This document shows positions 2,591 through 27,599 of a stretch of DNA of 64,000 bases, piece by piece; the first letter of the stretch is position 1; every line of letters starts with the position of its first letter. The stretch comes from a virus, in IMG/VR virus record IMGVR_UViG_3300009181_004605, positions 5,133-69,132 of that record; one strand, 5' to 3'. The notes under the pieces were generated by a model, which saw nothing but the letters and a program-made list of their open reading frames with translations, did no database searches and was not told where the DNA came from. Position numbers and translations under genes: made by a program.

Positions 2591-2616
2591 TATGTAGGAT
2601 ATCAATTTTACCATTT

Positions 2617-2638
2617 TGCCCCATAATGGGGCATTTTT
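2617..2638 (+). terminator. Rho-independent terminator
   Basis: TGCCCCA-TAA-TGGGGCA hairpin followed by TTTTT, just after the VWA gene. Confidence 0.75.
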
Positions 2639-2696
2639 ATGGTAGAAAATATATTCCAACTTGCTAAAGATAGTAAATATCTATACGGAGATTACA

Positions 2697-2897: not shown

Positions 2898-2898
2898 C

Positions 2899-4578: not shown

Positions 4579-4587
4579 GATAATATC

Positions 4588-5457: not shown

Positions 5458-5482
5458 CAATATATTTGTTGAGAACATAATA

Positions 5483-6082: not shown

Positions 6083-6094
6083 TTTCTTAAATAT

Positions 6095-7174: not shown

Positions 7175-8739
7175 TACGTTAATAACCAATGCCACTCATA
7201 CGTCTTACGTAATTCTGTAAAATTTCCTTTAACTGACTTATAGTAAGTTACTGCATCTAATGCTCCTTGTTGACTTGCATCTGCAAATTTGCCAGTGCCA
7301 GGACGTTGCCAAATACCAAGTCTGTACTGCGATTCAACATCTGTCGTATTGCATTGTAGTTTTATAACTTCTCTAAATGCTGTCCTCCATGCTGTCCATG
7401 CATCAGCAGCATACTCTGCCACACCCGACAATACGGGAACAACCTCATGTTCCTGCTCAAGTGTAAAGTCTAAACCTTGTGCATTATTTTCCATGACTAA
7501 TCGTTTATTATATGCTATCATAGCTTGATGACCATATACTAAACCATTTACAGGGTTAAGGGCATGGAAGATATAATGCTTAGATTGTTGTAAGCGATCG
7601 GGTTGCCAATTCCAATTGAACTTATCATCAACTTTTAGTTTTGCAAACACACAAAAAGCCCAATCGGTATCACTTGCAAATAATGCAGCACGATATGCTT
7701 GTGCTCTACCAACAACTCCATCGATGCGTATCACACGATTGGCTGCATGTTTAGTAACTGTGAGTAGATGCTGCCAGTTTTGCTCGGCATTACTTTCTCC
7801 GTTACTGATAAACACTATATCAAGTGGTGCATCTGTTACGGATTTAGCATATGAACGATCAATGGTTGGATAATCGTATAATTGTGTCTTAAGGAAGTTC
7901 TTAGCTTCTCGTGGTACCACAACTGAACTGGCACCAATGCTTAATGGAATTATAGCTTTGGTTTCTGTACGCCAAAGGTTAATTGCAGGGGGATTAGAAA
8001 CTGCTGTATGGCGAACAAATTGCACAACAGGGTCCTGAAAATCATGTAACCATACTGCATCAACTTGGCTATCATGTGCATGCGATACAATTGGCATTGG
8101 CTTTCTAGGTACTACAATATCCTCAACAAAGTGTATGGTATCAAACCATTCTAAGAGAGCAAGTTTGGCAGTTTTGGCAAGAAAGGTAGGTACATGGACA
8201 TAAAAGGTATCACCAAATACTTGTTCATCGCTAGGGAATACGTGTAACATTTCTTGCTGCCATTCGCTTGGATGCCAGGTAAAATCAAAATTGCTATAAT
8301 CACAAACACTGGATATCACCCAAACGTATTCATCTGTTACTTTAGACAACACTCGTCGTAGGGTGCCGAGATAATCATTGATGTATCGGGTATGCTGCTG
8401 TACTTTTGGCAGACTATCATTCCCGTGATCGATGCCAATGATAGGAACTGAATGTATACGTGGAATTGCTGTATGTGTTCTGTTTATTTCTGTGTGACTA
8501 TGTTTGGGTATTAAGTATGTTGCACCATTTTCTTGATGTTGACTGGGCCATACGTGAGCTTGATGTGCTTGCCATTGCACCGGTTCAAAAAGAAAATCAA
8601 ACGTATCATAGTCCGATAAGTAGTTTATGATCCAACAGAATCTTGTTTTGCTTAATTGTTGTGCATGTTTGATAGAATCTGCTGCTTGCTCATGTGCAAA
8701 CAATTTAGGTGCGGTTCCAATATAAAATATATCAAACAT
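7147..8739 (-). CDS. multi-domain glycosyltransferase-like protein (internal repeats plus GT-A-like C-terminal domain)
   Basis: C-terminal domain (DIVFIS..E, NGLVYG, AWRTAFREVIKL) is paralogous to 23391-24317; repeated W/F..DY..FDF..P.W unit. Confidence 0.55.
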   Translation of the reverse strand: MFDIFYIGTAPKLFAHEQAADSIKHAQQLSKTRFCWIINYLSDYDTFDFLFEPVQWQAHQAHVWPSQHQENGATYLIPKHSHTEINRTHTAIPRIHSVPIIGIDHGNDSLPKVQQHTRYINDYLGTLRRVLSKVTDEYVWVISSVCDYSNFDFTWHPSEWQQEMLHVFPSDEQVFGDTFYVHVPTFLAKTAKLALLEWFDTIHFVEDIVVPRKPMPIVSHAHDSQVDAVWLHDFQDPVVQFVRHTAVSNPPAINLWRTETKAIIPLSIGASSVVVPREAKNFLKTQLYDYPTIDRSYAKSVTDAPLDIVFISNGESNAEQNWQHLLTVTKHAANRVIRIDGVVGRAQAYRAALFASDTDWAFCVFAKLKVDDKFNWNWQPDRLQQSKHYIFHALNPVNGLVYGHQAMIAYNKRLVMENNAQGLDFTLEQEHEVVPVLSGVAEYAADAWTAWRTAFREVIKLQCNTTDVESQYRLGIWQRPGTGKFADASQQGALDAVTYYKSVKGNFTELRKTYEWHWLLTYYNLVYRIT

Positions 8740-9862
8740 GATTCGAATTGATGAGATTTACCAAAATACCTTTAAGGCTTGGTTAAAACAAAATAAAGTA
8801 GGAACTCGGATATTGCTTTGCGATCCATTTGGCAGAAGTGATCCAGATAGTATAATTAGTTATGATGATCAATCTATACTACAACAAAATTATGTATTCT
8901 TTTTTGATCAAGAACCTATTGATTTAAAAAGACACAAGGCAACTATAGAACGCGCACAAGATATAAATTATCTATATCTGCTAAGGAAAGGGGTATCTTA
9001 TAAAACAAAACAAGTGTTACCGGGATGTATTGTTACCAGTGAAAAAGATAGCGAAATTATTGCACAAATTTGTGATCAGTACAACATACCGTCTGCATAT
9101 TATTTCTTTCATGGTTGGGCGGCATTAGATTGGTATCGTGGATATAATCAAACTTTCTTAATATCCTCTCCTGGAGAGAGAGTTATAAACAAAACATTTA
9201 TAATGCCAAATCGTATCATTGCTGGTCAGCGCCAACATAGATTACTAATGTTATATCACATTTTTAAGAGTAATCTTAAAGATAATTGGATTAGTTGTCC
9301 GGCGATATGTCCGGCAGAAAATATAGATATTAACACAGCGGTGCAATCATTAAGCGAAACTTATCCAGATATTTGTGATATTTTTTCCCGGAAAATATTT
9401 CCTATGCAATTTCCTGGAGAAATTGATCATCCCATGCATAGCTGTTGGTTAAGCCTATTCGATGAGAGTGCCGAATGTTTACTATATCTTGTTACAGAAA
9501 CTGTGGCAACAGGCAAACGATTACATCTTACAGAAAAAACATTTAAACCGATATGTTTGGAAATGCCATTTATTATAGTAGGGACAAGAGGCAGTTTAGA
9601 ATATCTACGTAGCTATGGATTTCAAACATTCGGCAGCTTATGGGACGAAAGTTATGATGATGAACATGATGACATCGTTCGACTGGAAAAGATTGCGCAA
9701 TTATTGAAAGAATTAGATGCACTATCACAGAAAGAAAAACAAGAGTTGTTTCATGCCAGTAACGATATAATACGACACAACTATAATCATTTTTACAATG
9801 GTGGATTTGAAAAAATACTATGGGCAGAGTTAATTCACATGCTTGAAACTCTTCCAATATAA
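8738..9862 (+). CDS. glycosyltransferase-like protein (GT-B/GT10-like C-terminus)
   Basis: LVTETV..HLTEKTFKPI..PFII.G...L.YLRSYGFQTF..WDESYD; paralog of 20130-21314. Confidence 0.5.
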   Translation: MIRIDEIYQNTFKAWLKQNKVGTRILLCDPFGRSDPDSIISYDDQSILQQNYVFFFDQEPIDLKRHKATIERAQDINYLYLLRKGVSYKTKQVLPGCIVTSEKDSEIIAQICDQYNIPSAYYFFHGWAALDWYRGYNQTFLISSPGERVINKTFIMPNRIIAGQRQHRLLMLYHIFKSNLKDNWISCPAICPAENIDINTAVQSLSETYPDICDIFSRKIFPMQFPGEIDHPMHSCWLSLFDESAECLLYLVTETVATGKRLHLTEKTFKPICLEMPFIIVGTRGSLEYLRSYGFQTFGSLWDESYDDEHDDIVRLEKIAQLLKELDALSQKEKQELFHASNDIIRHNYNHFYNGGFEKILWAELIHMLETLPI

Positions 9863-9872
9863 TAGGATAACT

Positions 9873-10901
9873 ATGAAAAAATTAATCAATGCATACAACA
9901 GTTGGGATCCGTTGGAGGAGGTTGTTGTCGGACGAGCATATTCTCCGGAATACTTTGACTTCATTGACAATGCACAAGTTCGCAATCAGTTACAACAGAT
10001 ACTGAACGAAACTGCAGAAGATCTCGACGCACTTAGCAAAGTTATTGAATCACATGGTGCGATTGTACGTCGACCAACTTTACCCAACATAGATAAATTC
10101 CAGCAATGGCAGATTAACGATAACGGAGCACCATTACCGCCATTAACTCCGCGTGATTGGCAAATCACACTTGGACAGAAACTATTACGTGTATTATCAA
10201 TAGCCGAACTGGATGAGATATGTAATGATTTTGGGGATCAAGTTATAAATCCCCACCGTACTCAATGGGACGAATCATGTATTCTCAACGGAGCCAGTGC
10301 CAGTTGCATAGTTCGTGTAGGACGTGATGTGTTTTTTGATAACAGTGATTATTTGCAGCCCAATCAAACACGTTGGATTGTTGATAATGTGTTAGGACCC
10401 GAATATCGTATCCACGAAGCCATTACAGACGGGCATGGTGATGCTGTGTTTGCTATACTTAAACCTGGTGTGATACTGTCAAGCAAACATGATTTTCATA
10501 TTAATCTTGCACATGATTTTCCCGGGTGGGACGTACTTAAACTTTGGGATAGTTCAATATGGGCCGCTATGGAAGTTGGCAAGTTTAAGTATGATGCTGA
10601 TCCCGGAGCATGGTATGTACAAGGACAAACACCAACTCCAGATTTTACAGAATTTGTTAACACATATCTTACTAAGTGGACAGGTTTTGTTGCCGAGACA
10701 GTATTTGATGTTAATTGTCTTGTGCTTGACGAACAACATGTTATATTCAGCGCATATAATAAATCGGTATTTGATTTCTGTCAGCAGCATAAAATTGAAC
10801 CCATTATATGTGAACTACGGCATAGTTATTTTTGGGACGGTGGAATAAGTTGTTGCACACAGGATCTGCGTCGGCGTGGTGGTATGGAAACCTATCTATG
10901 A
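9873..10901 (+). CDS. amidinotransferase (glycine / scyllo-inosamine-4-phosphate amidinotransferase family)
   Basis: N-terminal WDPLEEVVVG, TPRD, GHGD (catalytic His), C-terminal GGISCCT (catalytic Cys); likely start ATG 9873. Confidence 0.85.
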   Translation: MKKLINAYNSWDPLEEVVVGRAYSPEYFDFIDNAQVRNQLQQILNETAEDLDALSKVIESHGAIVRRPTLPNIDKFQQWQINDNGAPLPPLTPRDWQITLGQKLLRVLSIAELDEICNDFGDQVINPHRTQWDESCILNGASASCIVRVGRDVFFDNSDYLQPNQTRWIVDNVLGPEYRIHEAITDGHGDAVFAILKPGVILSSKHDFHINLAHDFPGWDVLKLWDSSIWAAMEVGKFKYDADPGAWYVQGQTPTPDFTEFVNTYLTKWTGFVAETVFDVNCLVLDEQHVIFSAYNKSVFDFCQQHKIEPIICELRHSYFWDGGISCCTQDLRRRGGMETYL

Positions 10902-12178
10902 ACAATCTCGACGAAATATATCAAGAACTAGGCTCTGATATATGTCTATGTCCTTTTTTAGGAGCATTTTATCAAACCAATAATGTAATACCCGATACTG
11001 TTCCTACTATGCCAAATAGCGTTAGGCCATGTAGTATTGTTATGTCCGAGGATCGGCATAAATGGGATATAATCAATGATAGTATCACCGATGCTAGAAA
11101 TACAGATGCATGGAAAAACATGCGTAAAGATTTTATACAAGGTAATTTTCATAAGATTAACGACTGTAGAGCTTGCAGTCATAATGAACAGGTGGGTGCA
11201 ACGAGCCCACGGCAACAAAATAATCAATTTTTAGGAAATTTCTTAACAATTGATATTGTTGATCACATTAAGACAATTATTGCAAATGATTATATTGTCA
11301 ATGATATTGTAACATTAGATTATTACCCCAGCAATTACTGTAACTATTCATGTATTATGTGTGCTGGTGGTGCAAGTAGCAAACGACAAATATTCGAAGT
11401 TACTGTATTAAATCAAAAAACAAAAATTATCCTAAATTCTACCGATCCAGATTTTTTCAATATATTAGAAAAAGTTCAGATTATTAATTTTACCGGCGGC
11501 GAAACTGTATTGCAACCACAAGTACATGATATTATAGATTATCTTATTGAACGTGGACTTAGTAAGAATATAATGATTACCTTGCTAACTAATGCCAGCA
11601 GTAGTCCACAAGAGTTGGATGAGAAATTTAAACAATTTAAGAAAGTTATTTACAATGTAAGTATCGATGGTATTGGCAATGTGATTGAATATCAACGTCG
11701 TGGATGTAATTGGAAAACTGTTGAGAAACATAGCTTGGAATTGATGCATCATCCATATATTTCTACTGTGGTTAACTATGTACTAACCGCTGTTAATGTT
11801 CTTAGTGCGATGGATTTTGTTAATTGGGCTTATGATAATAATTTTGGTCCAAAGAATTCTGGAGCAAATGGCGGCAGCTTTATAAACATAAGCCCGGTGT
11901 TTCGTGTAGATCATCTTGGACAAGGTGTGCTACCTCCAGCACTTAGAGAATTAGCATTGCATAGACTATATGCAGGTAAACAACGATTTGATAATCAAAC
12001 TGGATTTATGGAAAATTATTATAGAGGACTAGTAGATAAGATAATCGGTGTAATTGATTCTACTGCACATCAACCAGAATTTATACCATTATTTGTCAAT
12101 CATATACGCAAGGAAGATTCAGTGTCAAAAAAACATTTGATAGATGTTGTTCCTGAATGGGCGCCGTGGTTTAGTTAA
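10898..12178 (+). CDS. radical SAM protein with N-terminal twitch/SPASM-like domain (#1)
   Basis: CNYSCIMC, FTGGET, SIDG; N-terminal CLCPF..RPC..CRAC; ATGA-coupled start at 10898. Confidence 0.85.
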   Translation: MNNLDEIYQELGSDICLCPFLGAFYQTNNVIPDTVPTMPNSVRPCSIVMSEDRHKWDIINDSITDARNTDAWKNMRKDFIQGNFHKINDCRACSHNEQVGATSPRQQNNQFLGNFLTIDIVDHIKTIIANDYIVNDIVTLDYYPSNYCNYSCIMCAGGASSKRQIFEVTVLNQKTKIILNSTDPDFFNILEKVQIINFTGGETVLQPQVHDIIDYLIERGLSKNIMITLLTNASSSPQELDEKFKQFKKVIYNVSIDGIGNVIEYQRRGCNWKTVEKHSLELMHHPYISTVVNYVLTAVNVLSAMDFVNWAYDNNFGPKNSGANGGSFINISPVFRVDHLGQGVLPPALRELALHRLYAGKQRFDNQTGFMENYYRGLVDKIIGVIDSTAHQPEFIPLFVNHIRKEDSVSKKHLIDVVPEWAPWFS

Positions 12179-12944
12179 TATCGCGATCAAGAATATGATT
12201 AAACATTATATTCTCTACTTGTGCAAGTCGTTGCGTTTTGTTTGCTTCCCCTAAAATAACTATAACATATTGTTGTTTCTTGTTTTGTACCAGCAATGCC
12301 ACACACCATCCAGCAGGATTAGTAAACCCAGTCTTGCTAATTAGAATATTATCAAACTCTATCAACACCGGTCGATTAGTATTGTTTATATCTATGCTAC
12401 GAATTTTCTTTCCATAATGAGCATCTATTAATGCCTGCTTCTTTGTGCTCGTACTTGTTATTAACTCGTATTTGGCCGCTTCCTTCAACAATATTCCAAT
12501 CTCGCCAGCTGTGGATATGTTTGCACTACTTAACCCACTGGGATCATTGAATCGAGTCTGTGTCATGCCCAATGCTGTTGCTTTAGTGTTCATTGCTTTT
12601 ATAAATGCTTTTCGACCACCAGGATAGTTTGCAGCCAATGTTTCTGCTGCGGCATTATCGGATCGTATTAACATAGCACTGAATAAATCTTCTCGACTGT
12701 AGTGAGTAAGTGGCAAGCGACTCTTTGTCACACGAGATAGTTTTAACTGTTGAACCATACTGGGATTCTGATCGATAGCTATTATTGCTGTCATTAGCTT
12801 AGTCAGACTTGCGATAGGTCGAGTGCTATTTACATCGTTACCAATTATTATCGTATCTGTGGTTTCGTTATAAACCCAAATGCTGGGTTTCTTAGCTGCA
12901 TGGGCTGACATTGAAAAAAACAACAAGATAATAAGAAATTTCAT
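12171..12944 (-). CDS. D-alanyl-D-alanine carboxy/endopeptidase (peptidase S11, PBP5/PBP7-like), secreted
   Basis: SxxK (ASLTK), SxN (SDN), KTG (SKTGFT) triad; signal peptide ending AHA. Confidence 0.92.
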   Translation of the reverse strand: MKFLIILLFFSMSAHAAKKPSIWVYNETTDTIIIGNDVNSTRPIASLTKLMTAIIAIDQNPSMVQQLKLSRVTKSRLPLTHYSREDLFSAMLIRSDNAAAETLAANYPGGRKAFIKAMNTKATALGMTQTRFNDPSGLSSANISTAGEIGILLKEAAKYELITSTSTKKQALIDAHYGKKIRSIDINNTNRPVLIEFDNILISKTGFTNPAGWCVALLVQNKKQQYVIVILGEANKTQRLAQVENIMFNHILDRDIN

Positions 12945-12945
12945 T

Positions 12946-13875
12946 TTAACTTGGCCAAGCTATTCGTGTATCGGCTAATAACAATGCTGCACCAATCGCA
13001 CTAGAACTATCACCAGGCACAGGTAATCCCCATACATTATCCCACAGTGGTAATATGTGTTGTCTAGCTTTGCTATTCATCGCACACCCGCCCATGTATA
13101 CCAAGTTGCGCTCACCGGTTAGTTCTAGTGCTTTATACATTACCCAGATTACTTGCTCTTCAAATACTCGTTGTACCGCAGTGGCGATGTCGTAACGATC
13201 ATGGCTTGATGATATTTTATGAGGCCAATTATAAACACCACGATGTAAATTATATCGTGCTTGCATTGGAGATTTGAAATAATCGGCTACAGTTTCATAA
13301 TATCTACTGTATGCACCATGATCGCTATCAAGTTGTAATAAATGTTCTTCTCCCAATGGTTTGTATCCTATTAGTTTAGTAAATGCAGAATAGAATAATC
13401 CAAGACTATTTGGGTAACTAACACTCCATAATTTTGTAAGCGTCTTGCCGGTGCCTTTCCAAATTGATGCTGATTCCCATTCACCTATTGCATCCAATAC
13501 TACAATAGCTGCACTGTCAAATGTTGATGTATAGAATCCGGCTGCTGCATGAGTCTTATGATGAGAAAAATATTTTATTGGAATCGACGGTATGGGTAAT
13601 TTTTCTAAATATACACTAGGAAGTACTTGACTATCAAATGCATCGGCATATTGTCCGGCATATAATTGACGAAACTTTTTAATCAGTGGGCGTTCATACC
13701 ACGCTATCTGATCTGGTTTACCATGAGCAAGAACATCATATATCAATGGCTTACATAATAGTTCATCGCCGGAATAGGTATAGTTTCGTGACTGTGCCCA
13801 AAATGCTAATTTATCATCCTTAATCACGGCGATACTTGCATCATGATTAAGAGCTGTAATACCCCAGGTTATCAT
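12946..13875 (-). CDS. carbamoyltransferase (NodU/CmcH/TobZ family), Kae1-like domain only
   Basis: HDAS, HHKTHAAAGF, LDAIGE, SLGLFYSAFT, GGCAMN, GDSSSAIGAA; 309 aa, no C-terminal YrdC-like domain. Confidence 0.85.
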   Translation of the reverse strand: MITWGITALNHDASIAVIKDDKLAFWAQSRNYTYSGDELLCKPLIYDVLAHGKPDQIAWYERPLIKKFRQLYAGQYADAFDSQVLPSVYLEKLPIPSIPIKYFSHHKTHAAAGFYTSTFDSAAIVVLDAIGEWESASIWKGTGKTLTKLWSVSYPNSLGLFYSAFTKLIGYKPLGEEHLLQLDSDHGAYSRYYETVADYFKSPMQARYNLHRGVYNWPHKISSSHDRYDIATAVQRVFEEQVIWVMYKALELTGERNLVYMGGCAMNSKARQHILPLWDNVWGLPVPGDSSSAIGAALLLADTRIAWPS

Positions 13876-13973
13876 TTATAAATGAATGGATCTCGTTTGC
13901 GCAACTCTTTAAGTTTACGCCGATAGCGTATCTCAAGTCGCATACGCTGATATAACTTTTTTAGCCAGTTCAT
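13872..13973 (-). CDS. 33-aa basic peptide MNWLKKLYQRMRLEIRYRRKLKELRKRDPFIYK (absent from ORF track)
   Basis: Read manually; ATGA overlaps at both ends with the flanking genes, AGGAG upstream; fills the gap exactly. Confidence 0.8.
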   Translation of the reverse strand: MNWLKKLYQRMRLEIRYRRKLKELRKRDPFIYK

Positions 13974-15055
13974 CCCATTCTCCTTTGATAATCGTAGCCC
14001 GGTTTTAGCTTGGCAATCTGTTGTTGTTTATAGTCACTGTCAGTCCAACAGTAATCAAACACTTGATTAGTACCATTTACTTCTATCTTATATATATCTA
14101 GATGTGCAGACAACATATTCCATATAGATTGAAAATCAGTAGTTCCAAAACTCTGTTGCAATTGCACTTGCCCTATAGGTAAATACCCAAGACTTAGTGA
14201 AACATCTGTTATGTCTTGTCCATTGTTTTGTAGCCAGATGCGAAATTGATCTTGTTCTTCATCATGCCAGGCACATGCACTATTATACACAATATCATTG
14301 CCCCATTCAACATCAAATTCTCCAGAATAATATTTAAGATGTGTGATTGCATCACATACTGTATTGGTTAAAACAGGTGCATGTTCGTCACGAAACACTT
14401 CAAACAAGGTTTTTCCTATCTGAGTCCAATGCATGTATACCCCACCAAACACACGGTCGTATCCATTAGAGTTAAACAGTTGTCTATGTTCATCGGTAAG
14501 TGTATACCTATCGGCTGTAATCCAAGTTGTGATTTGACTTGGACGTACCCAATTTGGAGCCGTTACTGCTTTTCTTCTGCTTAGAATAAGAGACTCTAAT
14601 TCATGACATATATTGTTTAATTGACGTATAGCATACTTAACATCATAGTCGGCGTGTTTATACCAGTTACTAATGTCTGATACTGTTCCTTGCAGTATTT
14701 CGAAATGATTATGTAATTCGTTAAACAACATATGATTGGGCCCATTCTCAGCCCAATCAGTTGCTAATACTGTATCTGGAGTAATAGTTAAATCAATATG
14801 GTATCCATCTAAGCCATTATTGACTGTGGCAATATGTTGTGTAATCTCATTGCATAGATATTCCACGGTGCGAGCTGTTTGTGGAAATCCAAGGAAACAA
14901 TAATTTTTCTCTAAAGGTTTAGCTGATTGTAATAATTTTTCAAGAGCTGATATCCAGTCTTGTCCAAGCTTATGATCAAATGATTGTATAACATAGTCAA
15001 GTTGATCGGCATGATTTAATGGGTTGCGTAGAACTATACGTACATTAGATTCCAT
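13970..15055 (-). CDS. hypothetical protein of the radical SAM cluster
   Basis: Long ORF, probable start MESNVR at 15055; no recognised motif. Confidence 0.7.
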   Translation of the reverse strand: MESNVRIVLRNPLNHADQLDYVIQSFDHKLGQDWISALEKLLQSAKPLEKNYCFLGFPQTARTVEYLCNEITQHIATVNNGLDGYHIDLTITPDTVLATDWAENGPNHMLFNELHNHFEILQGTVSDISNWYKHADYDVKYAIRQLNNICHELESLILSRRKAVTAPNWVRPSQITTWITADRYTLTDEHRQLFNSNGYDRVFGGVYMHWTQIGKTLFEVFRDEHAPVLTNTVCDAITHLKYYSGEFDVEWGNDIVYNSACAWHDEEQDQFRIWLQNNGQDITDVSLSLGYLPIGQVQLQQSFGTTDFQSIWNMLSAHLDIYKIEVNGTNQVFDYCWTDSDYKQQQIAKLKPGYDYQRRMG

Positions 15056-16325
15056 TCCACCACCTAGAAACATCTGATCTGGCGGCAAGTATATCATTCA
15101 TTGTGATGTTATGTGTACGTATACTTTCTAATTTTAGTATGCGTGTCTTACCTCTACGTAGTCCATCTGCATAAGCATCTGGCCATTGTTCCTCAAAGGT
15201 AGGACGTTGTTTAAGTTGTAGTAACACATCTGATAATGCTCCGGAGATTTGTGGAACAAGTTCATCAATCCATGCATTTAATATATTACGCGGTAATGCA
15301 AGTGGACTCATTACAATGTCCGAAGTAAAACTGAATATAACTTTAGCCAACACATCAACACCGAGTTGTTTAGCTAACTTGTCAATCGCAATAACTTCAA
15401 ACATACCTGGTAAGGTCAGTGTAAAATCTATACGTAATTGTCTTGGATGTTTTGCATATGGTAGCCCAAGTTTAAAATTATCCAACCATTCATTATAATT
15501 TAACCCGGTGCGTATGTATTCACCAATAGCGCCAGTGCCATCAAGACTGGCACATATTTGCCAATCACGTAAATGTGCAAGTATATCTTTGTATAAATTA
15601 GTACCACCATAACCGACTTTACTAAGATTAGTATTGTACCGGGCATAAACGTTCTTACCATCGCCAAGCTCAATGATACGTTTCATATATCGCCAGTGTT
15701 GCTCATACATAAGTGGTTCACCACCCACCCAATAAATCTCTTCTACTCTATGTTCTTCAACTGCTTGTGAAAATTCAGCTTCTATTTGTGTGTCTTGAAA
15801 TTGTGTTATCTGTTTTTTAACCATAGGACGCATCCAATTGTTTTTTGGATTGGACCAATCGACCATATTATTTTGACGTTGTTCTATTTCCCAACTACTC
15901 GACAGCATATCACCACACATACGACATTTAAAGTTACAGAGATTGCTAAATCTATAATCCCAACTTACTGGTAACATTGTGGTTGCACCATCGGCATTGG
16001 TTGTGCTAGATATTTTATCATATTTGTGTTTAAACAATTGCCAAAAGTATGTACGATATACATCCGTATTCAATAGTTTTTCATTGCATACTTCGCATTC
16101 TGGCAATGTTTCTCCAGCTATCATCCTCCGTCTAACAGACTGCATATGAGCACTATTCCAATGTTCCTCCAAAGTGATTGGAATATACTTGCCGGATCCA
16201 GCTTTTGTGTCGATATATTGTTTAAAATTTTGTGCAGGTTCACGACTTGCACAGCACATCCTACGTTCGCCTTGTGGAGAAAGATATGTGTGAGTCCATG
16301 GTGCTAGACAAAGTGTATTAGACAT
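15045..16325 (-). CDS. radical SAM protein with N-terminal twitch domain (#2)
   Basis: CLAPW..G..RMCC..CEVC, then CNFKCRMC, VGGEPL, YNTN, SLDG. Confidence 0.9.
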   Translation of the reverse strand: MSNTLCLAPWTHTYLSPQGERRMCCASREPAQNFKQYIDTKAGSGKYIPITLEEHWNSAHMQSVRRRMIAGETLPECEVCNEKLLNTDVYRTYFWQLFKHKYDKISSTTNADGATTMLPVSWDYRFSNLCNFKCRMCGDMLSSSWEIEQRQNNMVDWSNPKNNWMRPMVKKQITQFQDTQIEAEFSQAVEEHRVEEIYWVGGEPLMYEQHWRYMKRIIELGDGKNVYARYNTNLSKVGYGGTNLYKDILAHLRDWQICASLDGTGAIGEYIRTGLNYNEWLDNFKLGLPYAKHPRQLRIDFTLTLPGMFEVIAIDKLAKQLGVDVLAKVIFSFTSDIVMSPLALPRNILNAWIDELVPQISGALSDVLLQLKQRPTFEEQWPDAYADGLRRGKTRILKLESIRTHNITMNDILAARSDVSRWWNGI

Positions 16326-17526
16326 AGTTGACTAACTTAGCAAACTCGGGCTCAACAATAGATAAATGTTGCGAACGTTTACGATCAAGATCAGCAATCC
16401 TCATACGCATGATCGCTCCATCTGTACTTGCGCCCTTATTCATAAATTCTGCAATTAATTTAAATTCTGCTGATACTTTTTCTAAAACGTCGGCATTAAT
16501 TAATCTATCAGTTATAACACTCTTGGCTGTATCCGGCAATGATGCAACACTAAAGTACCAGGCATCATGCATGATATTCCAATATATGTAATCAAAATGT
16601 TGCTTAACAATCCATTGTGCTACAGTTTCTAGATAATACACATTAAACACATTTACCGTACAGCAGACCTGTAATCGTATATTTTTACATCGTTTGCGTA
16701 GTTCTCTAAATTTTTGTATGTTATCGCATACTTCTGACCATACAGCATTACTACGTTGATATTCAAATCTCTCTGCAACATCATCAATGCTAAATGCAAT
16801 CTCTACTAATTTAAAATGCTGCCAAATATTTTCAGCATTGCTAGGCCATTGTGTGCCATTTGTATTGTAGTGGATTTCAATAGTACCTGCTAGCCCTTGA
16901 TCAACAAGCCGTTGCAGCATATCAAAATGCTCACGGATCATGAATGGTTCACCACCAGTAAATTCAATATATCGTATTTGTTCGGATACCTGTGCTATTT
17001 CTTGCCAGAAACCTGGATTTTCACGTGGCCAAGCACCAGCACGTAACATAGTAAAGTGATGATTATTTTTTGAATCTTCTCCGACTGGCAAATTTTTTAG
17101 TTCTTCAACTGCAAATGTGCTTGAACTCCAACTACCACATATACGACATTTTAGATTACAGATATTTCCTAGCTTGAGATCTAAGAATACCAATGGTTTT
17201 GCATCAGCCGTCCAGCTTTGGTCTGGCAGCATGTGTTTTAGTCTATCCAATGTATGCATACGCTTGCTTGTACGACCACCACGTTCTTCATTCCAACATT
17301 TTCTGCAAGTTTTTGGCTGTTTGCCATCAAGAAATTCTTGACGAAGATCCCGCATATGAACGCTGTCTTGTATATTTTGAAATCCTGCTTGATGCAAATC
17401 AAATTTATTACCAGCATCATCTACTATTTCATCATCAGCAAGACAGCATGGTCTCACTGTGCCAATTGGGCTGGTCTCAAGGCTAACCCAGGGCAATACA
17501 CAGAACTTATCGTGTGGGATATTCAT
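16318..17526 (-). CDS. radical SAM protein with N-terminal twitch domain (#3)
   Basis: CVLPW..RPCC..CRKC, then CNLKCRIC, TGGEPF, YNTNG; ATGA-coupled start at 17526. Confidence 0.9.
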   Translation of the reverse strand: MNIPHDKFCVLPWVSLETSPIGTVRPCCLADDEIVDDAGNKFDLHQAGFQNIQDSVHMRDLRQEFLDGKQPKTCRKCWNEERGGRTSKRMHTLDRLKHMLPDQSWTADAKPLVFLDLKLGNICNLKCRICGSWSSSTFAVEELKNLPVGEDSKNNHHFTMLRAGAWPRENPGFWQEIAQVSEQIRYIEFTGGEPFMIREHFDMLQRLVDQGLAGTIEIHYNTNGTQWPSNAENIWQHFKLVEIAFSIDDVAERFEYQRSNAVWSEVCDNIQKFRELRKRCKNIRLQVCCTVNVFNVYYLETVAQWIVKQHFDYIYWNIMHDAWYFSVASLPDTAKSVITDRLINADVLEKVSAEFKLIAEFMNKGASTDGAIMRMRIADLDRKRSQHLSIVEPEFAKLVNYV

Positions 17527-18809
17527 ATTAATGCAGCCAATTCTGGAATAACATCTAGTATATTTTCGCATCGTATATAATCAAGCTCACTAGTTTTAGC
17601 CCAGAATGTATCGATTAATTTTGTATTATCGGTTTTATTCATAAAGGTAATAGCACTTTCAAATCCAACAGTTGCTCTATGTAGTGTGTCCAACGGGCGC
17701 AGCCATTCTAAATGTTTTTCAAATTTTTGTTGTATCTGTTCTTTATATTCTTTAGTTGCGATATCAATTCTAAAATGCATTGGATCTTGTAAGATATTTA
17801 CATTCAAATCTTGCGGGTATATCAATCCCTTATCAATCCAATCTTTATGAAAATCAGGCAGGTGCAATGCATTCATGATGCTAAGTGTTGGTGAGATATA
17901 AAAGTCTACATCAGGACAGATTTCTATCATACTTCTACGATTTTCTTCTACAACTTTCCACACGGTACCTTTACGAATATATTCAGCACGCGGGCCCATA
18001 GCATCTAAGCTGGCTCCAACAGCGACATGTTCAAACTTTTTCCAATAATCAAATACACTACGATTTTTTAGTTTCACTTGTGTAAAGTTTGTATTGTATA
18101 TCAGTCTTACATCAAAGCGTTTACGACGTTCTAATTCTTCAAGGATAAGATAATGTTCTTCCATCATTAATGGTTCGCCACCGGCAAAATATATTTGCTC
18201 TACATGATCGATATGTTCTATTAGCTGTTCCCACATATCGGTTTCATGTTGCCCGGCGTAGTTTAATGCCGTGTTTTTAATCGCCCATTCGGGTCCAGCA
18301 ATTTTGACTTGATCTTGATACCATTGACTTGAAAATATAGATCCACAGCTACGGCAACGGAGATTGCATAAGTTGCTAAATCGTATATCCCAATATGTCA
18401 TGGCAAATTCATCCACATGCCCGGTGTCTGTAGTATCGTCAATTCGATCAATTTGATGTCCGTGATGCTTGTTAGCACTTTTACGTCCACTGAAAAATCC
18501 AGATTGTTCTTGCTCGTAACAACGACCACATGCCACATTGGTATTTTCAGACAACATATCTACTCTAAGTTTCTTTTGTGGTTCACTATTCCATATTTCT
18601 TTAAGTGTATTGGTTTTACAATTACCAACGGGATAGTTCATTTCTGAATGGCAACATGGATAAGCTTCGCCGGTGGGATAGGCATGTAGGTGAATCCAAG
18701 GATAGATGCAAAATGTTTTTGATTCTGAAAGCAAGAACTGTTTCTTTTTGTCAAGATCGGCTAATTGGATCTTAACTGGATCGGTGCTGCTATAATTATA
18801 TGCTGTCAT
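17523..18809 (-). CDS. radical SAM protein with N-terminal twitch domain (#4)
   Basis: CIYPW..YPCC..CGRC, then CNLRCRSC, AGGEPL, YNTN, SLD. Confidence 0.9.
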   Translation of the reverse strand: MTAYNYSSTDPVKIQLADLDKKKQFLLSESKTFCIYPWIHLHAYPTGEAYPCCHSEMNYPVGNCKTNTLKEIWNSEPQKKLRVDMLSENTNVACGRCYEQEQSGFFSGRKSANKHHGHQIDRIDDTTDTGHVDEFAMTYWDIRFSNLCNLRCRSCGSIFSSQWYQDQVKIAGPEWAIKNTALNYAGQHETDMWEQLIEHIDHVEQIYFAGGEPLMMEEHYLILEELERRKRFDVRLIYNTNFTQVKLKNRSVFDYWKKFEHVAVGASLDAMGPRAEYIRKGTVWKVVEENRRSMIEICPDVDFYISPTLSIMNALHLPDFHKDWIDKGLIYPQDLNVNILQDPMHFRIDIATKEYKEQIQQKFEKHLEWLRPLDTLHRATVGFESAITFMNKTDNTKLIDTFWAKTSELDYIRCENILDVIPELAALI

Positions 18810-20133
18810 ACCATTCTAATAGATTGGGAAATGTTTGGGCAAAGTTTTTACCACGACGTTGATCGTATTGTGTGTAAAATTGTTTGAAATCATTGTGTAG
18901 CTTAGGCATGTCAAATGCATCACTATGTGGGGTTTTAACTACGTCAAGATAATCAATTAATCTTTGGACCTGATTGATTTCGTGTTCGTGTAACAATTTA
19001 TTTGATGCATTAATATTTAACCAAGCTGCAAGTGTGTGTTGATATCGTGTACGAATTTCTACCGGTAACACCAAGGGGCTTTGGAAGCTGGGGAAACGCA
19101 GTATATTAAGTGTAAAACTTGGAAAATCTTTACCATATAGATGCTTTAGTTCAAGCATATGATTTAAGAAGTTTGGTAAACTGTCAAGGCATAGCGCGTT
19201 GATCGTACACATCACATGCACAGCACGAACGGTGCCACTTGTGATAAGTGTTCTCATGTTCATAAACCATTGTGCGTAATCAAGCCCATCTCTAATGTAT
19301 TCTGCTTGTGCTGAAACCGATTCACAGCTAGTATAAACTTCAACATGTGGCAATGGGCGTATAGCTTCAATAAACTCTTGTAGTTTGTCTTGCTTGAGTC
19401 CAAGATTACTGTTAATTGCAAGATGTGTAGTGCTCTTACCTTGATTAAGTTTAAACCATTCTATTAGTTTCCAAGTCTCGGCTGACATTAATGGTTCGCC
19501 ACCAGTAATGCGTAGCTCTTTAAGGGTACGATGTAGATCAGTTTCCCACCAACGAAAAAATGCATCAACATATGGATTTACTTCACCAAATTTATACAGT
19601 TGTGCGCTGTCATGCGGATGTGTGAAATGATTACGACCATCGCTTATTAGTCCGGTGTATGCTCCATTGGTTTTAATATCCTTGACCCATGTACTTGAAA
19701 ATGCAGGATTGCAGTAGCTACAAGCAAATTGACAGGTGCGATCAAATGCAATTTCTAAAGTTTGAAGATCCACATCGGCAGTTGGATCCATATCAAATGC
19801 ACGTTGTAGATCTTGTTTGCTGTAGATTTTACTTTTGTACACACGATCACTAATGTTATTACGTCCAGTGTCTTCTATTTTCCAACAGTATTCACAACCT
19901 TTTGGACGATTACCATCCTGCATCATAGCACGATCCAATTTTTTAGTTGGAGTATTGTGTATTGCTTTAGGATTTGTTTTTAATGCTTCGGTGTCGATTG
20001 CATGTGCTGGAGGGTGATGGCAACTGGTGCTTTGACCACTGCCTAACCATATGGTTGCATTATACCACTTGGCCGCGCAAAAGCTGGCACTTTTAGTGTC
20101 AAGCACGTTGCGTTTAAATTCTAAATCGTTCAT
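18796..20133 (-). CDS. radical SAM protein with N-terminal twitch domain (#5)
   Basis: CAAKW..SCHHP..CEYC, then CQFACSYC, TGGEPL. Confidence 0.9.
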   Translation of the reverse strand: MNDLEFKRNVLDTKSASFCAAKWYNATIWLGSGQSTSCHHPPAHAIDTEALKTNPKAIHNTPTKKLDRAMMQDGNRPKGCEYCWKIEDTGRNNISDRVYKSKIYSKQDLQRAFDMDPTADVDLQTLEIAFDRTCQFACSYCNPAFSSTWVKDIKTNGAYTGLISDGRNHFTHPHDSAQLYKFGEVNPYVDAFFRWWETDLHRTLKELRITGGEPLMSAETWKLIEWFKLNQGKSTTHLAINSNLGLKQDKLQEFIEAIRPLPHVEVYTSCESVSAQAEYIRDGLDYAQWFMNMRTLITSGTVRAVHVMCTINALCLDSLPNFLNHMLELKHLYGKDFPSFTLNILRFPSFQSPLVLPVEIRTRYQHTLAAWLNINASNKLLHEHEINQVQRLIDYLDVVKTPHSDAFDMPKLHNDFKQFYTQYDQRRGKNFAQTFPNLLEWYDSI

Positions 20134-21314
20134 TTGATATGTTGATTGATAAATTGGTGGAACTGATTGGGCAACTCTCTAGGAACTTGGTGACGCATCT
20201 CAGTATACAACTCTTGATTGTATTTACATACATTATAACACTCTTTGTAGAAAATTGCAAGATCTTGTTGACATAAATCTTCAACCACTTCAGCTACACG
20301 TTCAATACGATCTTGACTGTTATCTATTACGTCAAATGATTCATCAATTACATGTCCGAATGTTTTAAACCCCAGCTTATGTATGTCTCGATAAAATCCT
20401 CGATTGGCCACAGCAATAAATGGATGTCCTACAGCAACAGGTTTCCAAATCTTTTCTGTTCTAAAGCTGTATGGGTAATTAAACACTGTTTCAGTTACTA
20501 GACTAAAGTAAGTATCTCTGTATGCTGTTCCATCTACTACAGCATCGCCCCAGGTGTTGTTGAACAAATTAAATTTAACAGTACCAGCAGAGGGCAAATG
20601 ATCTATATTGTTTCTAAATGCTGGAGTTTCGTATACCTTAGGTAGGAAATGCAGATCAATCTGGCGTTCCATAACGTCCGCACCGTTGTGCTCAAACGCC
20701 AATTTGATCATATTCATATTGTTAAAATTCTGCCAACATGTTTGTGGTAGATTTTTAATTAGCACAAGATCAGTGTCAAGATTTGTCCATAGACTATGAT
20801 CTAATAATCCACTTGCTTGAAATCGCTCTAACAGATATTTTCTATGGCTACGCATACGTCCATTTAAAAATAGGAAATTGTATGGTTTATCGGTGATTGC
20901 AAAATACTCCTCGATGCGGCTGCCAGCTTCAACATTCTCATCAAAGTCAAATATCTTGGGCAGAAAATATTCATACCTCATGTAGGGCCACGTAGAAGGA
21001 TCCATGTCGCCACCACCAATTAACAGTATACGGCCTTCTTCTATTAGGTTAATTAGGCCTTTGACAAAACACCAAGTAACCAGAGTTTCTGACCCTTCTG
21101 CGGCATTGTCTAATATCACAGTTACCTGGCCACTACGAGCCAGTTCTTGTATTTCATAATTGTAATTGTTGACCTGTTCACGACATATGATATACACAGC
21201 ACCGGGCACTATTTCATGCTGTCGAAGATCCCAAAATTCGTCGTCGGCCCAGGGCAATAATTCTCTATAGATTTCGCTATGTGTGTCTAATATAAGTTTA
21301 TGATTGCCGAGCAT
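20130..21314 (-). CDS. glycosyltransferase-like protein (GT-B/GT10-like C-terminus)
   Basis: FLFLNGRMRSHR, SLVTETV..TEKIWKPV..HPFI..GFKTF..IDESFD; paralog of 8738-9862. Confidence 0.5.
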   Translation of the reverse strand: MLGNHKLILDTHSEIYRELLPWADDEFWDLRQHEIVPGAVYIICREQVNNYNYEIQELARSGQVTVILDNAAEGSETLVTWCFVKGLINLIEEGRILLIGGGDMDPSTWPYMRYEYFLPKIFDFDENVEAGSRIEEYFAITDKPYNFLFLNGRMRSHRKYLLERFQASGLLDHSLWTNLDTDLVLIKNLPQTCWQNFNNMNMIKLAFEHNGADVMERQIDLHFLPKVYETPAFRNNIDHLPSAGTVKFNLFNNTWGDAVVDGTAYRDTYFSLVTETVFNYPYSFRTEKIWKPVAVGHPFIAVANRGFYRDIHKLGFKTFGHVIDESFDVIDNSQDRIERVAEVVEDLCQQDLAIFYKECYNVCKYNQELYTEMRHQVPRELPNQFHQFINQHIK

Positions 21315-22695
21315 GATACTTACATTCTGCCCACCATGAGCTCATTTCTGGAAATACAGTTAAGAAGTTGGTACCGTGTCTGCGGTCTGATTCCGTAAAG
21401 AAGCGATAAAAGTCTGCTTTATTTTTATTAAGATATACTGGATCTAACTTCTGTCCATCACGCATCCAAGCAATGTCGCGATCAAGACGTGCCAACTCAT
21501 AATCTTTAAATCCTTTAAAAGGAGCTTCTTCTGTTTCTAATTGTCGAATCATCCAAGCCCATATTAGTTCTAATTGATCTGCATAGCTTTCTGGTAACAA
21601 CTGTAGACTTTGCCACGTAGGTTGACGTAATACTGGAGTATCAAACCAGATACGTTGATAGGTATTGCTGTATAGATGTCGTAAGCCCAGTATAGCTGCA
21701 AATAAACTACCAAGCCCTGTAACAGATAGATTATTCATTGTAACAATGAATGTGATACTGTTACGTCCAGGAATTTCTGTTAAAAATTGATTAACTCGAT
21801 CCCATAACAGATTAAAATCTAATCCATTCCGTATATATTCTGCTTGTGATCCAAATGAATCTAAACTTACATATTGCATAAAATGTTCAACATTGTCTTT
21901 TTTACATAGGCGCTTGACATATCTAAGATATTTTTTCCAGCTTTTTTCATCGACTGAAAAGTTACTGGTAACATTTAAATGCAGATCTGGCTTTGGATTA
22001 GCTAACACATAGTCAAACACACGATAGGTATTTTTATCAAGCAATGGTTCGCCGCCAGTCATGCGGAAATGTTTTAGCTGTGGATATAGTTCAGGCCACC
22101 ATGCCCAGAATGCATCCACATAAGGATTAGGTTGTGAGTGTGGTATTGGCTTACGACTTCCTGCGAAATGTTCTGGAGCATTATGTGGTGTTGAAGTTGG
22201 GTAGGCTCCATGTCGATCTATTTCCTGCTGCCAAGTACTGCTGAACTGTGGACTGCAATAGCTACATTTAAGATTACAAGCATTGTTGAAATTAACTTCT
22301 ACATAACTAGGAATAACATCTTCGTCACCAGTTGAATTTTTAATAGCATCAAAATCTGCAGCAGCCCATGGTTCTCCAGAACGGTAGTGTCTATCACTAA
22401 GTTTGCCATTATCTTCCATATTCCAGCAGTAGCTACATTCTGCTGGACGTTCTTGTTTTAACATAATCTTACGTTGCTCTTTTTTGTATGCGGTATTATG
22501 TAATGCAGATGGATTGGACTTAATCGCAGATGGATCTATAGAATGTAGGGGAGGATGGTAACATGAGTTATTAAGCCCAGTTGGTAAGTGTAAGCTTACC
22601 TGTTTCCATTTAGCTAAACAAAGCGCATGTCCAAGTTTATCATGCATCGTTTCGGCATCGTTTAAAAACTTTGATTTAAAGTCGGGTGTTGTCAT
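21298..22695 (-). CDS. radical SAM protein with N-terminal twitch domain (#6)
   Basis: CLAKW..SCYHP..CSYC, then CNLKCSYC, TGGEPL; close paralog of #5; ATGA-coupled start at 22695. Confidence 0.9.
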   Translation of the reverse strand: MTTPDFKSKFLNDAETMHDKLGHALCLAKWKQVSLHLPTGLNNSCYHPPLHSIDPSAIKSNPSALHNTAYKKEQRKIMLKQERPAECSYCWNMEDNGKLSDRHYRSGEPWAAADFDAIKNSTGDEDVIPSYVEVNFNNACNLKCSYCSPQFSSTWQQEIDRHGAYPTSTPHNAPEHFAGSRKPIPHSQPNPYVDAFWAWWPELYPQLKHFRMTGGEPLLDKNTYRVFDYVLANPKPDLHLNVTSNFSVDEKSWKKYLRYVKRLCKKDNVEHFMQYVSLDSFGSQAEYIRNGLDFNLLWDRVNQFLTEIPGRNSITFIVTMNNLSVTGLGSLFAAILGLRHLYSNTYQRIWFDTPVLRQPTWQSLQLLPESYADQLELIWAWMIRQLETEEAPFKGFKDYELARLDRDIAWMRDGQKLDPVYLNKNKADFYRFFTESDRRHGTNFLTVFPEMSSWWAECKYHARQS

Positions 22696-23387
22696 ACTAA
22701 TAAATCCCATACTTTATTAAAAACTTCATCATCATAAAATTTTAATTCTTTTTGCATAGTACTTGAAAAAATATCTGTTCCTGTTCTGATATCAATGATA
22801 GTATCAGCGTGGGACAGGTCTATTGGATATTTAGAATAGTAATCCAGATGCCAGTCTATTATATCGTTCGCAGAATCGATTTTGTTAATATATTCATTTT
22901 TAATAGTGTTTAGCGGCACATCTGATTGATAAGGTGACAAGATTTTTTTTAAATCTTGATTAACTTCGTGTACTATCTCAATTGGCAACTTATTAAAATC
23001 TGCTATGCTCAAACAATCAGGCCAACTGCTATCTTTAATTATGTTATAATGAACAATTCTATCTATGATAGGCTCGATCTTTTTTTTAACGTGACGAGTA
23101 TGCCCTTCGAGAATCCATTCACGTTGCAAACATTTATTCAAGTCACCTAAAATTAAACAGATACTATGTTTGGGGAACTTAGATATAATATAACGAGAAT
23201 TTAAACAATGCGTTAATATATATTCTTGCCCTTTATCTACAATATCATCTAATAGATACCGGTTTTCAAAATACTGGGGAGTATTTACTTTACTGTCGTA
23301 TGTTACATTTGATTCTTGCCATTCTAAATTTTCCAACATACGTAGATATCGATTACCACCTGCACCCGGATAAAATGCAATAATCAC
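22692..23387 (-). CDS. hypothetical protein, possible P-loop/sulfotransferase-like fold
   Basis: N-terminal IIAFYPGAGGNR glycine loop; AT-rich; GTG start. Confidence 0.5.
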   Translation of the reverse strand: MIIAFYPGAGGNRYLRMLENLEWQESNVTYDSKVNTPQYFENRYLLDDIVDKGQEYILTHCLNSRYIISKFPKHSICLILGDLNKCLQREWILEGHTRHVKKKIEPIIDRIVHYNIIKDSSWPDCLSIADFNKLPIEIVHEVNQDLKKILSPYQSDVPLNTIKNEYINKIDSANDIIDWHLDYYSKYPIDLSHADTIIDIRTGTDIFSSTMQKELKFYDDEVFNKVWDLLV

Positions 23388-23390
23388 AAG

Positions 23391-24317
23391 TTACCAACCT
23401 TCTTGATTTCTAATTACATCAATCTCACGCGTCATAATACCAACATTGTGCCAATTGCTGCGATAATGCTGTTTGAAGAATTTGCTGCTATTCTCGTCTA
23501 ACATAGTAATTGGCAAACCAAGTTGCGTAACCAAATCTTCAGATACACGACCTGCTAATAAATCTGGGTCTGAATCCTGCACTGTGCCCCACAACTCAGC
23601 TAATGCATCAAAATCTTGAACCGTTGTATGATCCCAGGAAGTGAGCATGGTCATGTAAGTACCCATCCTGGCGCCGGCTATACTCCAACTTCCGTGCTCT
23701 ACATCACGGCCAACGTTGTGCCATATAGTAAGATGATCAAGATTACGCTGATGCACTTGAGTTTGAAATTCTGCTAATGTTGGCTTTACTCCCTTATTCA
23801 AGCACATCTTAACACCTTCCCTAAATCCTGCGCGCCAAGCATGATAGGATGATTGATCGGGATAGGTTGTGCTATAGCAATCATGCATGGGCCAATACAA
23901 CGGATCAAAGCAAAACTCTACTTGGGTTTCGGCTCGGCCATCTGTGGCTTCATGTGTTTGCATACGGTTAACAAAGTTTTTTGTCCAACTACTTATTCCA
24001 CCATTGCCGTACATGAGTCCATTTATATGATTACGGGCACGCCAACGATATACAGCCTGTTGCCATTCTGCAGTGGGAAATTCCAATGAAAGATTAAAAA
24101 ACTTTAGATCAGGCATGTTGTCGCCGTCAATTAGGATAAATCGATCAGTTGTGCTGGCTGCTGCTGCTGCTTTATGTGCTGCGTCACTGCCCCTAATCCC
24201 ATCAACTCGTTTGGCCCATGGGATCATATGTCGAATTTTAATCCAGAATTCTTCTCTATTTGGTTCATCAAATGTAAGGAAAATTACATCAAGATCGGCA
24301 ATATCAATTTGTGTCAT
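23391..24317 (-). CDS. GT-A-like glycosyltransferase
   Basis: DVIFLTFDE, RVDGIRGSDAAHKAAA, DxD (IDGDN), NGLMYGNGG, AWRAGFREGVKM. Confidence 0.6.
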   Translation of the reverse strand: MTQIDIADLDVIFLTFDEPNREEFWIKIRHMIPWAKRVDGIRGSDAAHKAAAAASTTDRFILIDGDNMPDLKFFNLSLEFPTAEWQQAVYRWRARNHINGLMYGNGGISSWTKNFVNRMQTHEATDGRAETQVEFCFDPLYWPMHDCYSTTYPDQSSYHAWRAGFREGVKMCLNKGVKPTLAEFQTQVHQRNLDHLTIWHNVGRDVEHGSWSIAGARMGTYMTMLTSWDHTTVQDFDALAELWGTVQDSDPDLLAGRVSEDLVTQLGLPITMLDENSSKFFKQHYRSNWHNVGIMTREIDVIRNQEGW

Positions 24318-27589: not shown

Positions 27590-27599
27590 TCTGTTATTC

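Follow-up and report, generated by a model that had tools for sequence, protein, structure and literature searches.

Here we describe six paralogous radical S-adenosylmethionine (SAM) enzymes encoded in a 64-kb stretch of viral DNA (hereafter, the window), which covers positions 5,133 to 69,132 of the 69-kb IMG/VR virus contig IMGVR_UViG_3300009181_004605. The genes, here numbered rSAM1 to rSAM6, encode proteins of 403–465 amino acids (aa) and lie at 10898-12178 (+; rSAM1), 15045-16325 (−; rSAM2), 16318-17526 (−; rSAM3), 17523-18809 (−; rSAM4), 18796-20133 (−; rSAM5) and 21298-22695 (−; rSAM6). All six passed the curated cut-off (170 bits) of NCBIfam entry NF033640 (N_Twi_rSAM, ‘twitch domain-containing radical SAM protein’), scoring 206.5, 279.4, 327.2, 396.5, 309.4 and 311.5 bits, respectively, and their matches spanned the 398-position model from positions 1–5 to 387–398, including the N-terminal twitch domain and the core. 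These six places were the only NF033640 matches on the contig. The copies are intact, further members of a family that had been catalogued and left functionally blank, as the original prediction for this DNA, made from the letters alone, had surmised: the name NF033640 gives no function, and a literature search for the family returned no paper on it, only generic SPASM/twitch papers. Unlike the entry itself, which amounts to a name, the window offers six members in one phage, five of which stand in a fixed and widely conserved order.

In a six-way alignment, four N-terminal cysteines (C-x2-[PK]-[WF] ... C[CHYS] ... CxxC) were invariant, as were the downstream columns CxxxCxxC, an SS pair (residues five and six after the last core cysteine), GGE and then N, S and E-Y-x-R. 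By their CxxxCxxC and GGE motifs, the six copies would belong to the radical SAM superfamily. Pfam Radical_SAM (PF04055; gathering score of 29.5 bits) was detected in every copy, above gathering in rSAM1 (32.2), rSAM3 (40.0) and rSAM4 (33.0) and below it in rSAM2 (25.3), rSAM5 (23.3) and rSAM6 (22.8); Pfam SPASM (PF13186) matched the N terminus of three of the six (rSAM2, rSAM3 and rSAM4). The original prediction had placed a cysteine module ahead of the CxxxCxxC core, SS and GGE in all six proteins and had made its case depend on conservation of the N-terminal cysteines, which the alignment bears out. It had also named clustering with a housekeeping family such as MoaA, NrdG or QueE as evidence to the contrary. 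The copies scored at most 30.7 bits against a cut-off of 284 for MoaA, 20.4 against 131 for NrdG (NrdG2) and 26.3 against 260–300 for QueE; the prokaryotic viperin entry NF038283 reached at most 32.9 bits against a cut-off of 180.

The open reading frame (ORF) listing confirmed that rSAM2 to rSAM5 are directly tandem with overlapping ends; the rSAM3 ATG, a start inferred from the orthologue alignment, overlaps the rSAM4 stop codon as ATGA. One 394-aa gene sets rSAM6 apart. On the opposite strand and convergent with this block lies rSAM1, an accessory copy with 17–24% pairwise identity to the others, in agreement with its earlier description as divergent.

What distinguishes the family is its N-terminal module. 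We searched the PDB with a profile of 17 such domains, taken from the six paralogues and their orthologues. The only significant match was the C-terminal twitch domain of BtrN (2-deoxy-scyllo-inosamine dehydrogenase; 4m7s/4m7t), at residues 163–238 of 4m7s with an E-value of 1.2e-5 and with all four cluster-binding cysteines aligned, which supports the earlier assignment of the module as a true twitch domain. Across the six copies and 17 N-terminal domains, only four auxiliary cysteines are conserved, which points to a single-cluster twitch rather than a full SPASM domain with seven cysteines and two clusters. BtrN resembles the N_Twi proteins in having a single auxiliary cluster in a homologous twitch domain, but its twitch follows the core (residues 163–238 of 269), whereas that of the N_Twi copies precedes it. 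Nor is the BtrN core specifically related, as BtrN was absent from the listed fold matches of rSAM4, and the N_Twi proteins are predicted to carry an extra C-terminal helical region of ~110 aa. A BtrN-type architecture, with a C-terminal twitch domain and a BtrN-related core, does not seem to apply.

For the core, we relied on an AlphaFold2 model of rSAM4 built from a 99-row alignment (predicted local distance difference test (pLDDT) of 96.5; predicted template modelling (TM) score of 0.93). Foldseek returned generic radical SAM cores only (best E-value of 2.5e-5; TM score of 0.3–0.38). An independent VIA fold search of the core against representatives gave BlsE (Z of 12.9), CteB (12.3), anSME (12.3), SkfB (12.0), MoaA (11.6) and viperin (11.5), over ~205–221 residues at 12–18% identity and tied within ~1.5 Z. 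These near-equal matches, from BlsE to viperin, place the modelled core in the SPASM/twitch/MoaA/viperin branch, apparently without a close solved structure. A phmmer search with rSAM4 found nothing in the PDB at E ≤ 1, and a profile search against the PDB found viperin at E = 5e-8; the likeness to viperin is confined to the fold of the core. From all six of these best structural matches, the N_Twi proteins differ in carrying the auxiliary domain at the opposite end and in NCBIfam scores far under the family cut-offs. Prediction of an rSAM4–rSAM3 complex scored 0.00 in both runs, a ‘no answer’ that speaks neither for nor against binding.

We then placed the six proteins in a quick maximum-likelihood tree of 51 family members with Shimodaira–Hasegawa-like approximate likelihood ratio test (SH-aLRT) support; the tree omits L013 and L015, which are near-duplicates of loci L012 and L016, and radical SAM ORFs that missed an E-value of 1e-10 against the family profile. 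Five clades emerged with SH-aLRT values of 99–100 (100 for rSAM2 and 99 for rSAM3), each with one member per contig except for two rSAM3-type members in L012. The rSAM5 clade was sister to rSAM6 (support of 100), the stem branches of rSAM2 and of the rSAM5–rSAM6 pair measured 2.2–2.7, and rSAM1 was an orphan on a branch of 2.52. On this phylogeny, which the original prediction had called for, rSAM2 to rSAM6 are five anciently separated orthogroups. The two subtypes that had been proposed fared unequally: the CC motif of rSAM2 to rSAM4 and the C[HY]HP motif of rSAM5 and rSAM6 are both present, but the CC type is no clade and comprises three separate deep orthogroups.

Gene order is conserved along with the sequences. 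Related loci, gathered with rSAM4 alone, numbered nine viral and one bacterial. The order in the nine viral loci is fibre, 326, ~100, 287, 261, 131 and 308 aa, rSAM6-5-4-3-2, 361 aa and carbamoyltransferase, with variable inserts between. Over the extent of each locus, the 6-5-4-3-2 series is kept in L008, L009, L010, L011, L012/13 and L015/16, and two further contigs, L153 and L154, have the same layout. Orthologues share 68–76% identity for rSAM2, 44–62% for rSAM3, 47–75% for rSAM4 (the best-conserved core orthogroup), 63–66% for rSAM5 and 67–71% for rSAM6; among the neighbours, the 261-aa and 287-aa proteins share 28–49% and the fibre protein 49–64%. For rSAM1, no orthologue was found in loci L008–L016. 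In L008, a relative with 97% identity, two additional divergent rSAM genes are present and the genes for the 394-aa and 231-aa proteins are missing; thus, the periphery of the cassette is fluid and its five-gene core fixed.

Several proteins are tandem double N_Twi enzymes. P0123, P0126 and P0138 have an rSAM4-like first half (48, 43 and 34% identity) and an rSAM3-like second half (48, 39 and 31%), matching the succession of the separate genes in the window, and in one phage relative an 851-aa fusion occupies the rSAM4/rSAM3 slot (L153 5282-7837, −). These fusions argue only for coupling and would link rSAM4 and rSAM3 functionally. The original prediction had offered sequential steps or a hetero-oligomer as explanations of the tandem; we infer that sequential steps are favoured by the fixed order and the one-per-phage orthology. 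Many rSAM4-like representatives carry an N-terminal extension of ~135 aa, for which we found no counterpart among the ORFs of the window or the related loci.

rSAM2 to rSAM6 lie within a block of 19 co-directional genes that runs from 28958 down to 12171 (~17 kb), most gene ends overlapping by a few bases. At its head are two tail-fibre-type structural proteins of 326 and 452 aa (26609-28958, −), the latter with PHROG virion-structural and tail-fibre matches; L008–L010 and L015/L016 conserve both at this position. There follow three conserved core genes of 131, 261 and 287 aa (24304-26289, −), with orthologues in L008–L016 and a phrog_1903 match for the 261-aa protein; from DxD-type motifs, we read the 261-aa and 287-aa proteins as putatively GT-A-like. 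A conserved 308-aa protein (23391-24317, −; orthologues at 60–66% identity) resembles GT2-type glycosyltransferases: the Atlas clusters closest to it are viral, one of them bearing the automatic name ‘Glycosyltransferase 2-like domain-containing protein’. It had no Pfam match and no PDB sequence match. Two members of the block are variable. One, of 231 aa (22692-23387, −), had no family match and no homologue in L008–L016. The other is the 394-aa protein between rSAM5 and rSAM6 (20130-21314, −), a paralogue of the gene at 8738-9862 that shares a C-terminal block with it and with inserts of related loci; we read it as a putative glycosyltransferase. When the PDB was searched with profiles of the 308-aa, 287-aa and 261-aa proteins and of the 374/394-aa family, no credible match emerged.

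Downstream, rSAM2 is always followed by a conserved 361-aa protein (13970-15055, −; present in L008, L009, L011, L012 and L016), which was matched by 5952 of 8000 scored candidates at ~63% identity, all named hypothetical. Its AlphaFold2 model (pLDDT of 85.7) contains an inserted four-helix bundle and gave middling matches to cyclophilin-like barrels at a chance-level Z of 7.5–9; no Atlas, PDB-profile or Foldseek match was found. The block ends with a 309-aa carbamoyltransferase that consists of the N-terminal (Kae1-like) domain only (12946-13875, −; Pfam Carbam_trans_N, 1.4e-29; phrog_1601) and an S11 D-Ala-D-Ala endopeptidase-like protein with a signal-peptide-like N terminus (12171-12944, −; Pfam Peptidase_S11, 6.3e-38; NF008668, 4.8e-49, below cut-off). 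Among the loci compared, the peptidase occurs only in the window and L008. The carbamoyltransferase is also 309 aa, with the N-domain alone, in L008, and relatives of ~490–500 aa add Carbam_trans_C; the short form may be truncated or work with another partner.

Related cassettes also hold two GT7 galactosyltransferase-like proteins with lectin-type domains, a hexapeptide acyltransferase, APS-kinase-like and GDSL/DUF6071 proteins and full-length carbamoyltransferases. Between rSAM3 and rSAM2, three of them carry a 188-aa PNP_UDP_1 gene that is absent from the window (L009 12480-13046, L010 12486-13049 and L154 5100-5666). We take it to be of the MTAN type, in which case it could clear 5′-deoxyadenosine, the inhibitory by-product of radical SAM turnover.

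The arm on the other side of the convergence is accessory. Directly upstream of rSAM1 lies an amidinotransferase (9843-10901, +), for which phmmer against the PDB found AGAT (2jdx, 3.6e-16; 1jdw, 1.9e-15), StrB1 (1bwd, 2e-12), HsvA and SxtG, with the C-terminal catalytic cysteine motif aligned. A DegT/PseC-type sugar aminotransferase (6095-7174, +; Pfam DegT_DnrJ_EryC1, 1.3e-57; PseC, 3.6e-39, below cut-off) is encoded ~3.7 kb upstream of rSAM1, next to a class I methyltransferase (5483-6082, +; Pfam Methyltransf_24, 1.3e-20). The methyltransferase, ThyX and an unassigned 289-aa protein share this adjoining arm.

The gap between the 361-aa and carbamoyltransferase genes is filled by a micro-ORF of 33 aa (13872-13973, −), whose ends overlap both neighbours and whose basic C terminus, ending in DPFIYK, is invariant. 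All six related loci that extend to this point contain it. Their DNA alignment showed third-position changes over invariant residues, indicating that the micro-ORF is coding and under purifying selection. A degenerate pattern for the last eight residues and the stop codon occurred in at least 120 viral contigs, compared with an estimated ~0.1 expected by chance. Within 2 kb on either side, 74 of 80 micro-ORF loci encoded a carbamoyltransferase homologue, 23 the 361-aa protein, 16 an N_Twi radical SAM protein and 2 an amidinotransferase homologue. We also selected ten long contigs among those without a radical SAM gene in the flank: seven had an N_Twi gene elsewhere, in six cases starting 2–8 kb away, and three, all fragments, had none. 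The micro-protein therefore belongs to the cassette but, with 74 loci against 16, tracks the carbamoyltransferase most closely, and for this reason we rejected it as the radical SAM substrate in our preferred interpretation. No NCBIfam entry matched it, the string ‘DPFIY’ was in no paper within the literature searched, and tblastn did not find it in three Bacteroidota loci.

The window is a fragment of an uncultured T4-like jumbo phage, on a contig with an estimated completeness of ~20%. Its genes include those for a late sigma factor of the gp55 type, nuclease subunits of the gp46/47 type and baseplate proteins, and its 1141-aa baseplate wedge protein is 33–34% identical to those of jumbo phages of 350–490 kb (Atu_ph07, Phosso and Yersinia fHe-Yen9 phages). 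A single ORF of 4875 aa (29772-44399, −) separates the baseplate wedge gene from the fibre genes. Outside the window, contig positions 1-5132 hold a transporter-like membrane ORF and a periplasmic-binding-protein-like ORF, followed by an AAA ATPase; they may be auxiliary genes or mark a join made in assembly. Despite the gp55-like sigma factor, the T4 late-promoter octamer TATAAATA occurs once in the window, compared with 9.5 occurrences expected from shuffles, and was rejected as a cassette marker. A megablast search of the 12-kb radical SAM region against a phage collection gave no match.

At the protein level, relatives abound. With rSAM4, 7583 of 8000 scored candidates in a 90%-clustered collection matched at E ≤ 1e-5, the top ones at 74–78% identity, and 10025 representatives of 50% clusters matched at E ≤ 0.001 (1430 at E ≤ 1e-30). 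One 92% complete jumbo phage contig of 342 kb (G302, the contig of L035) had 18 NF033640 matches at E ≤ 1e-10, in several arrays. NF033640 exceeded its cut-off in 3 of 301 sampled Bacteroidota genomes and in none of 14 control genomes. The Bacteroidota arrays adjoin a fusion of a methyltransferase with GT2, a GT22-like protein, UbiA and GDSL proteins. In one of them (L031, from G080; 2614-8035 and 13076-15604), an N_Twi pair lies near five PhyH dioxygenases, a WelO5-like enzyme and two B12-radical SAM enzymes; ~1.3 kb from the pair lies the gene for a fibre-like, Peptidase_S74-bearing protein that is secreted by the type IX secretion system.

Radical SAM genes have been noted in aquatic phages before. 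The available part of a study of pelagimyophages describes radical SAM cassettes in a host-recognition cluster (PMC7029224), and these resemble the window in setting radical SAM genes beside tail-fibre and lipopolysaccharide-type genes in marine T4-like phages. For cyanophage S-SCSM2R, the accessible text lists an aminotransferase, an amidinotransferase and a radical SAM ‘maturase’, a trio like that of the window, as unexplained ‘antibiotic synthesis genes’ (PMC12801897). The S-SCSM2R amidinotransferase is homologous to that of the window (31% identity); tblastn with rSAM4 and rSAM1 found no match in that phage. In the parts available, neither paper gives a family assignment, an orthogroup structure or a function. 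A search of the literature on radical SAM enzymes, jumbo phages and SPASM domains found no paper on phage members of the family. New here are the fusions that link rSAM4 with rSAM3, the finding that BtrN alone matches the N-terminal domain and the linkage of the micro-protein to the carbamoyltransferase.

The analyses above show to which family the enzymes belong, what their domains are homologous to, how the copies correspond between phages, that their order is fixed and which genes surround them; from these results we infer a substrate, a chemistry and a target. Our preferred proposal, in which we have about even confidence, is that each of the five core enzymes performs a different radical step in the tailoring of a sugar-based decoration, and that this decoration is probably on virion fibres. 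Within its own step, each paralogue would cleave SAM at the core cluster; the 5′-deoxyadenosyl radical would take the hydrogen atom from a specific C–H bond of the substrate, and an electron would pass to the twitch cluster, as in BtrN. The outcome may be oxidation, epimerization, deoxygenation or C–C chemistry on a decoration that the glycosyltransferase-like proteins of the cassette would build and that would then be carbamoylated. In the phage of the window, the accessory arm (DegT, amidinotransferase and rSAM1) would further aminate and amidinate it, and the likeliest target would be the virion fibre proteins encoded at the head of the block. The sugar-type context counts in favour of this proposal, namely DegT, the carbamoyltransferase, the amidinotransferase and the GT2-like label of the 308-aa protein, as do the sugar-type genes of related cassettes and the neighbours of the Bacteroidota arrays. 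The available part of PMC12619734 cites precedents for phage glycosylation of virions and DNA.

Several points weigh against it. The nearest folds include as many peptide modifiers (anSME, CteB, SkfB and SuiB) as sugar enzymes (BlsE and DesII), within ~2 Z. The 131-, 261-, 287-, 374- and 394-aa proteins have no Pfam, NCBIfam or PDB-profile match, and reading any of them as a glycosyltransferase is putative. DegT and the amidinotransferase are accessory, and neither was seen in L009–L016; a location behind the fibre genes is not enough to name the target; and we know of no substrate for any NF033640 member. Finally, TPR or Sel1 repeats occur in 9 of 21 long cellular homologues, suggesting protein partners.

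Most SPASM/twitch enzymes modify protein or peptide substrates, and the radical SAM proteins might instead act on residues, through crosslinks, epimerizations or oxidations, of the fibre proteins encoded upstream or of a small ribosomal peptide. We regard this as possible though doubtful. The peptide modifiers tied with the best fold matches and the repeat fusions of the cellular homologues point in this direction, as do the micro-ORF, with its invariant C terminus in every cassette examined, and the Peptidase_S74 fibre-like protein near the radical SAM pair of one Bacteroidota genome. The cyclophilin-like barrel of the 361-aa partner would be a further hint, but its Z is at chance level. The micro-ORF itself follows the carbamoyltransferase far better than the radical SAM genes, is found on three long contig fragments without an N_Twi gene and was missed by tblastn in the three Bacteroidota loci. 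Moreover, the recognizable neighbours are sugar enzymes, not the recognition elements of RiPPs (peptides of ribosomal origin with post-translational modifications), proteases or exporters.

Unlikely, in our view, is a small molecule of the aminocyclitol or guanidino-sugar type, diffusible or host-directed, in which a radical SAM enzyme would oxidize an alcohol, DegT transaminate the ketone, the amidinotransferase make the guanidine and the carbamoyltransferase cap the product. BtrN is an aminocyclitol dehydrogenase, and the homology of its twitch domain fits this pathway, as does an amidinotransferase related to StrB1, which acts on inosamine phosphate, with DegT nearby. The corresponding S-SCSM2R trio has also been called ‘antibiotic synthesis genes’, in the text accessible to us (PMC12801897). 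However, the aminotransferase and amidinotransferase lie outside the conserved core, as the two amidinotransferase homologues among 80 micro-ORF loci illustrate, Pfam and NCBIfam scans recognized no kinase, cyclase or exporter in the window, and the core is co-directional with the fibre genes.

In the biosynthesis of pyrroloquinoline quinone (PQQ) and mycofactocin, a small peptide is processed by a SPASM/twitch radical SAM enzyme and then by a glycosyltransferase. By analogy, the micro-protein could be a peptide anchor or precursor whose DPFIYK C terminus is reworked by the radical SAM proteins before glycosyl, carbamoyl and amidino groups are added. We consider this very unlikely; a peptide-derived product, if true, would mean that a PQQ/mycofactocin-like logic is carried by hundreds of jumbo phages.

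Radical SAM enzymes also occur in thymidine hypermodification clusters. DNA hypermodification, in which phage bases would be decorated with an edited sugar or an amino-acid-derived group to evade restriction, is nevertheless highly improbable: ThyX, the methyltransferase and the 289-aa protein on the adjoining arm and the DNA-hypermodifying viral glycosyltransferases cited in the available part of PMC12619734 would fit it, but the core sits in the tail-fibre block rather than among replication genes, Pfam, PHROG and NCBIfam scans turned up no family of base hydroxymethylases, DNA glycosyltransferases or kinases, and the bacterial relatives are in envelope-type contexts (GT22-like, UbiA and membrane GDSL).

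Five paralogues in a fixed order, at 60–75% identity across diverged phages, suggest a multi-step radical pathway under strong selection, and this pathway adjoins the genes that decide host recognition. Its product, once found, would give a function to the whole of NCBIfam family NF033640 and probably also reveal new radical SAM chemistry, and it would tell us what is added to the fibres of giant aquatic phages or produced by these phages in their hosts.

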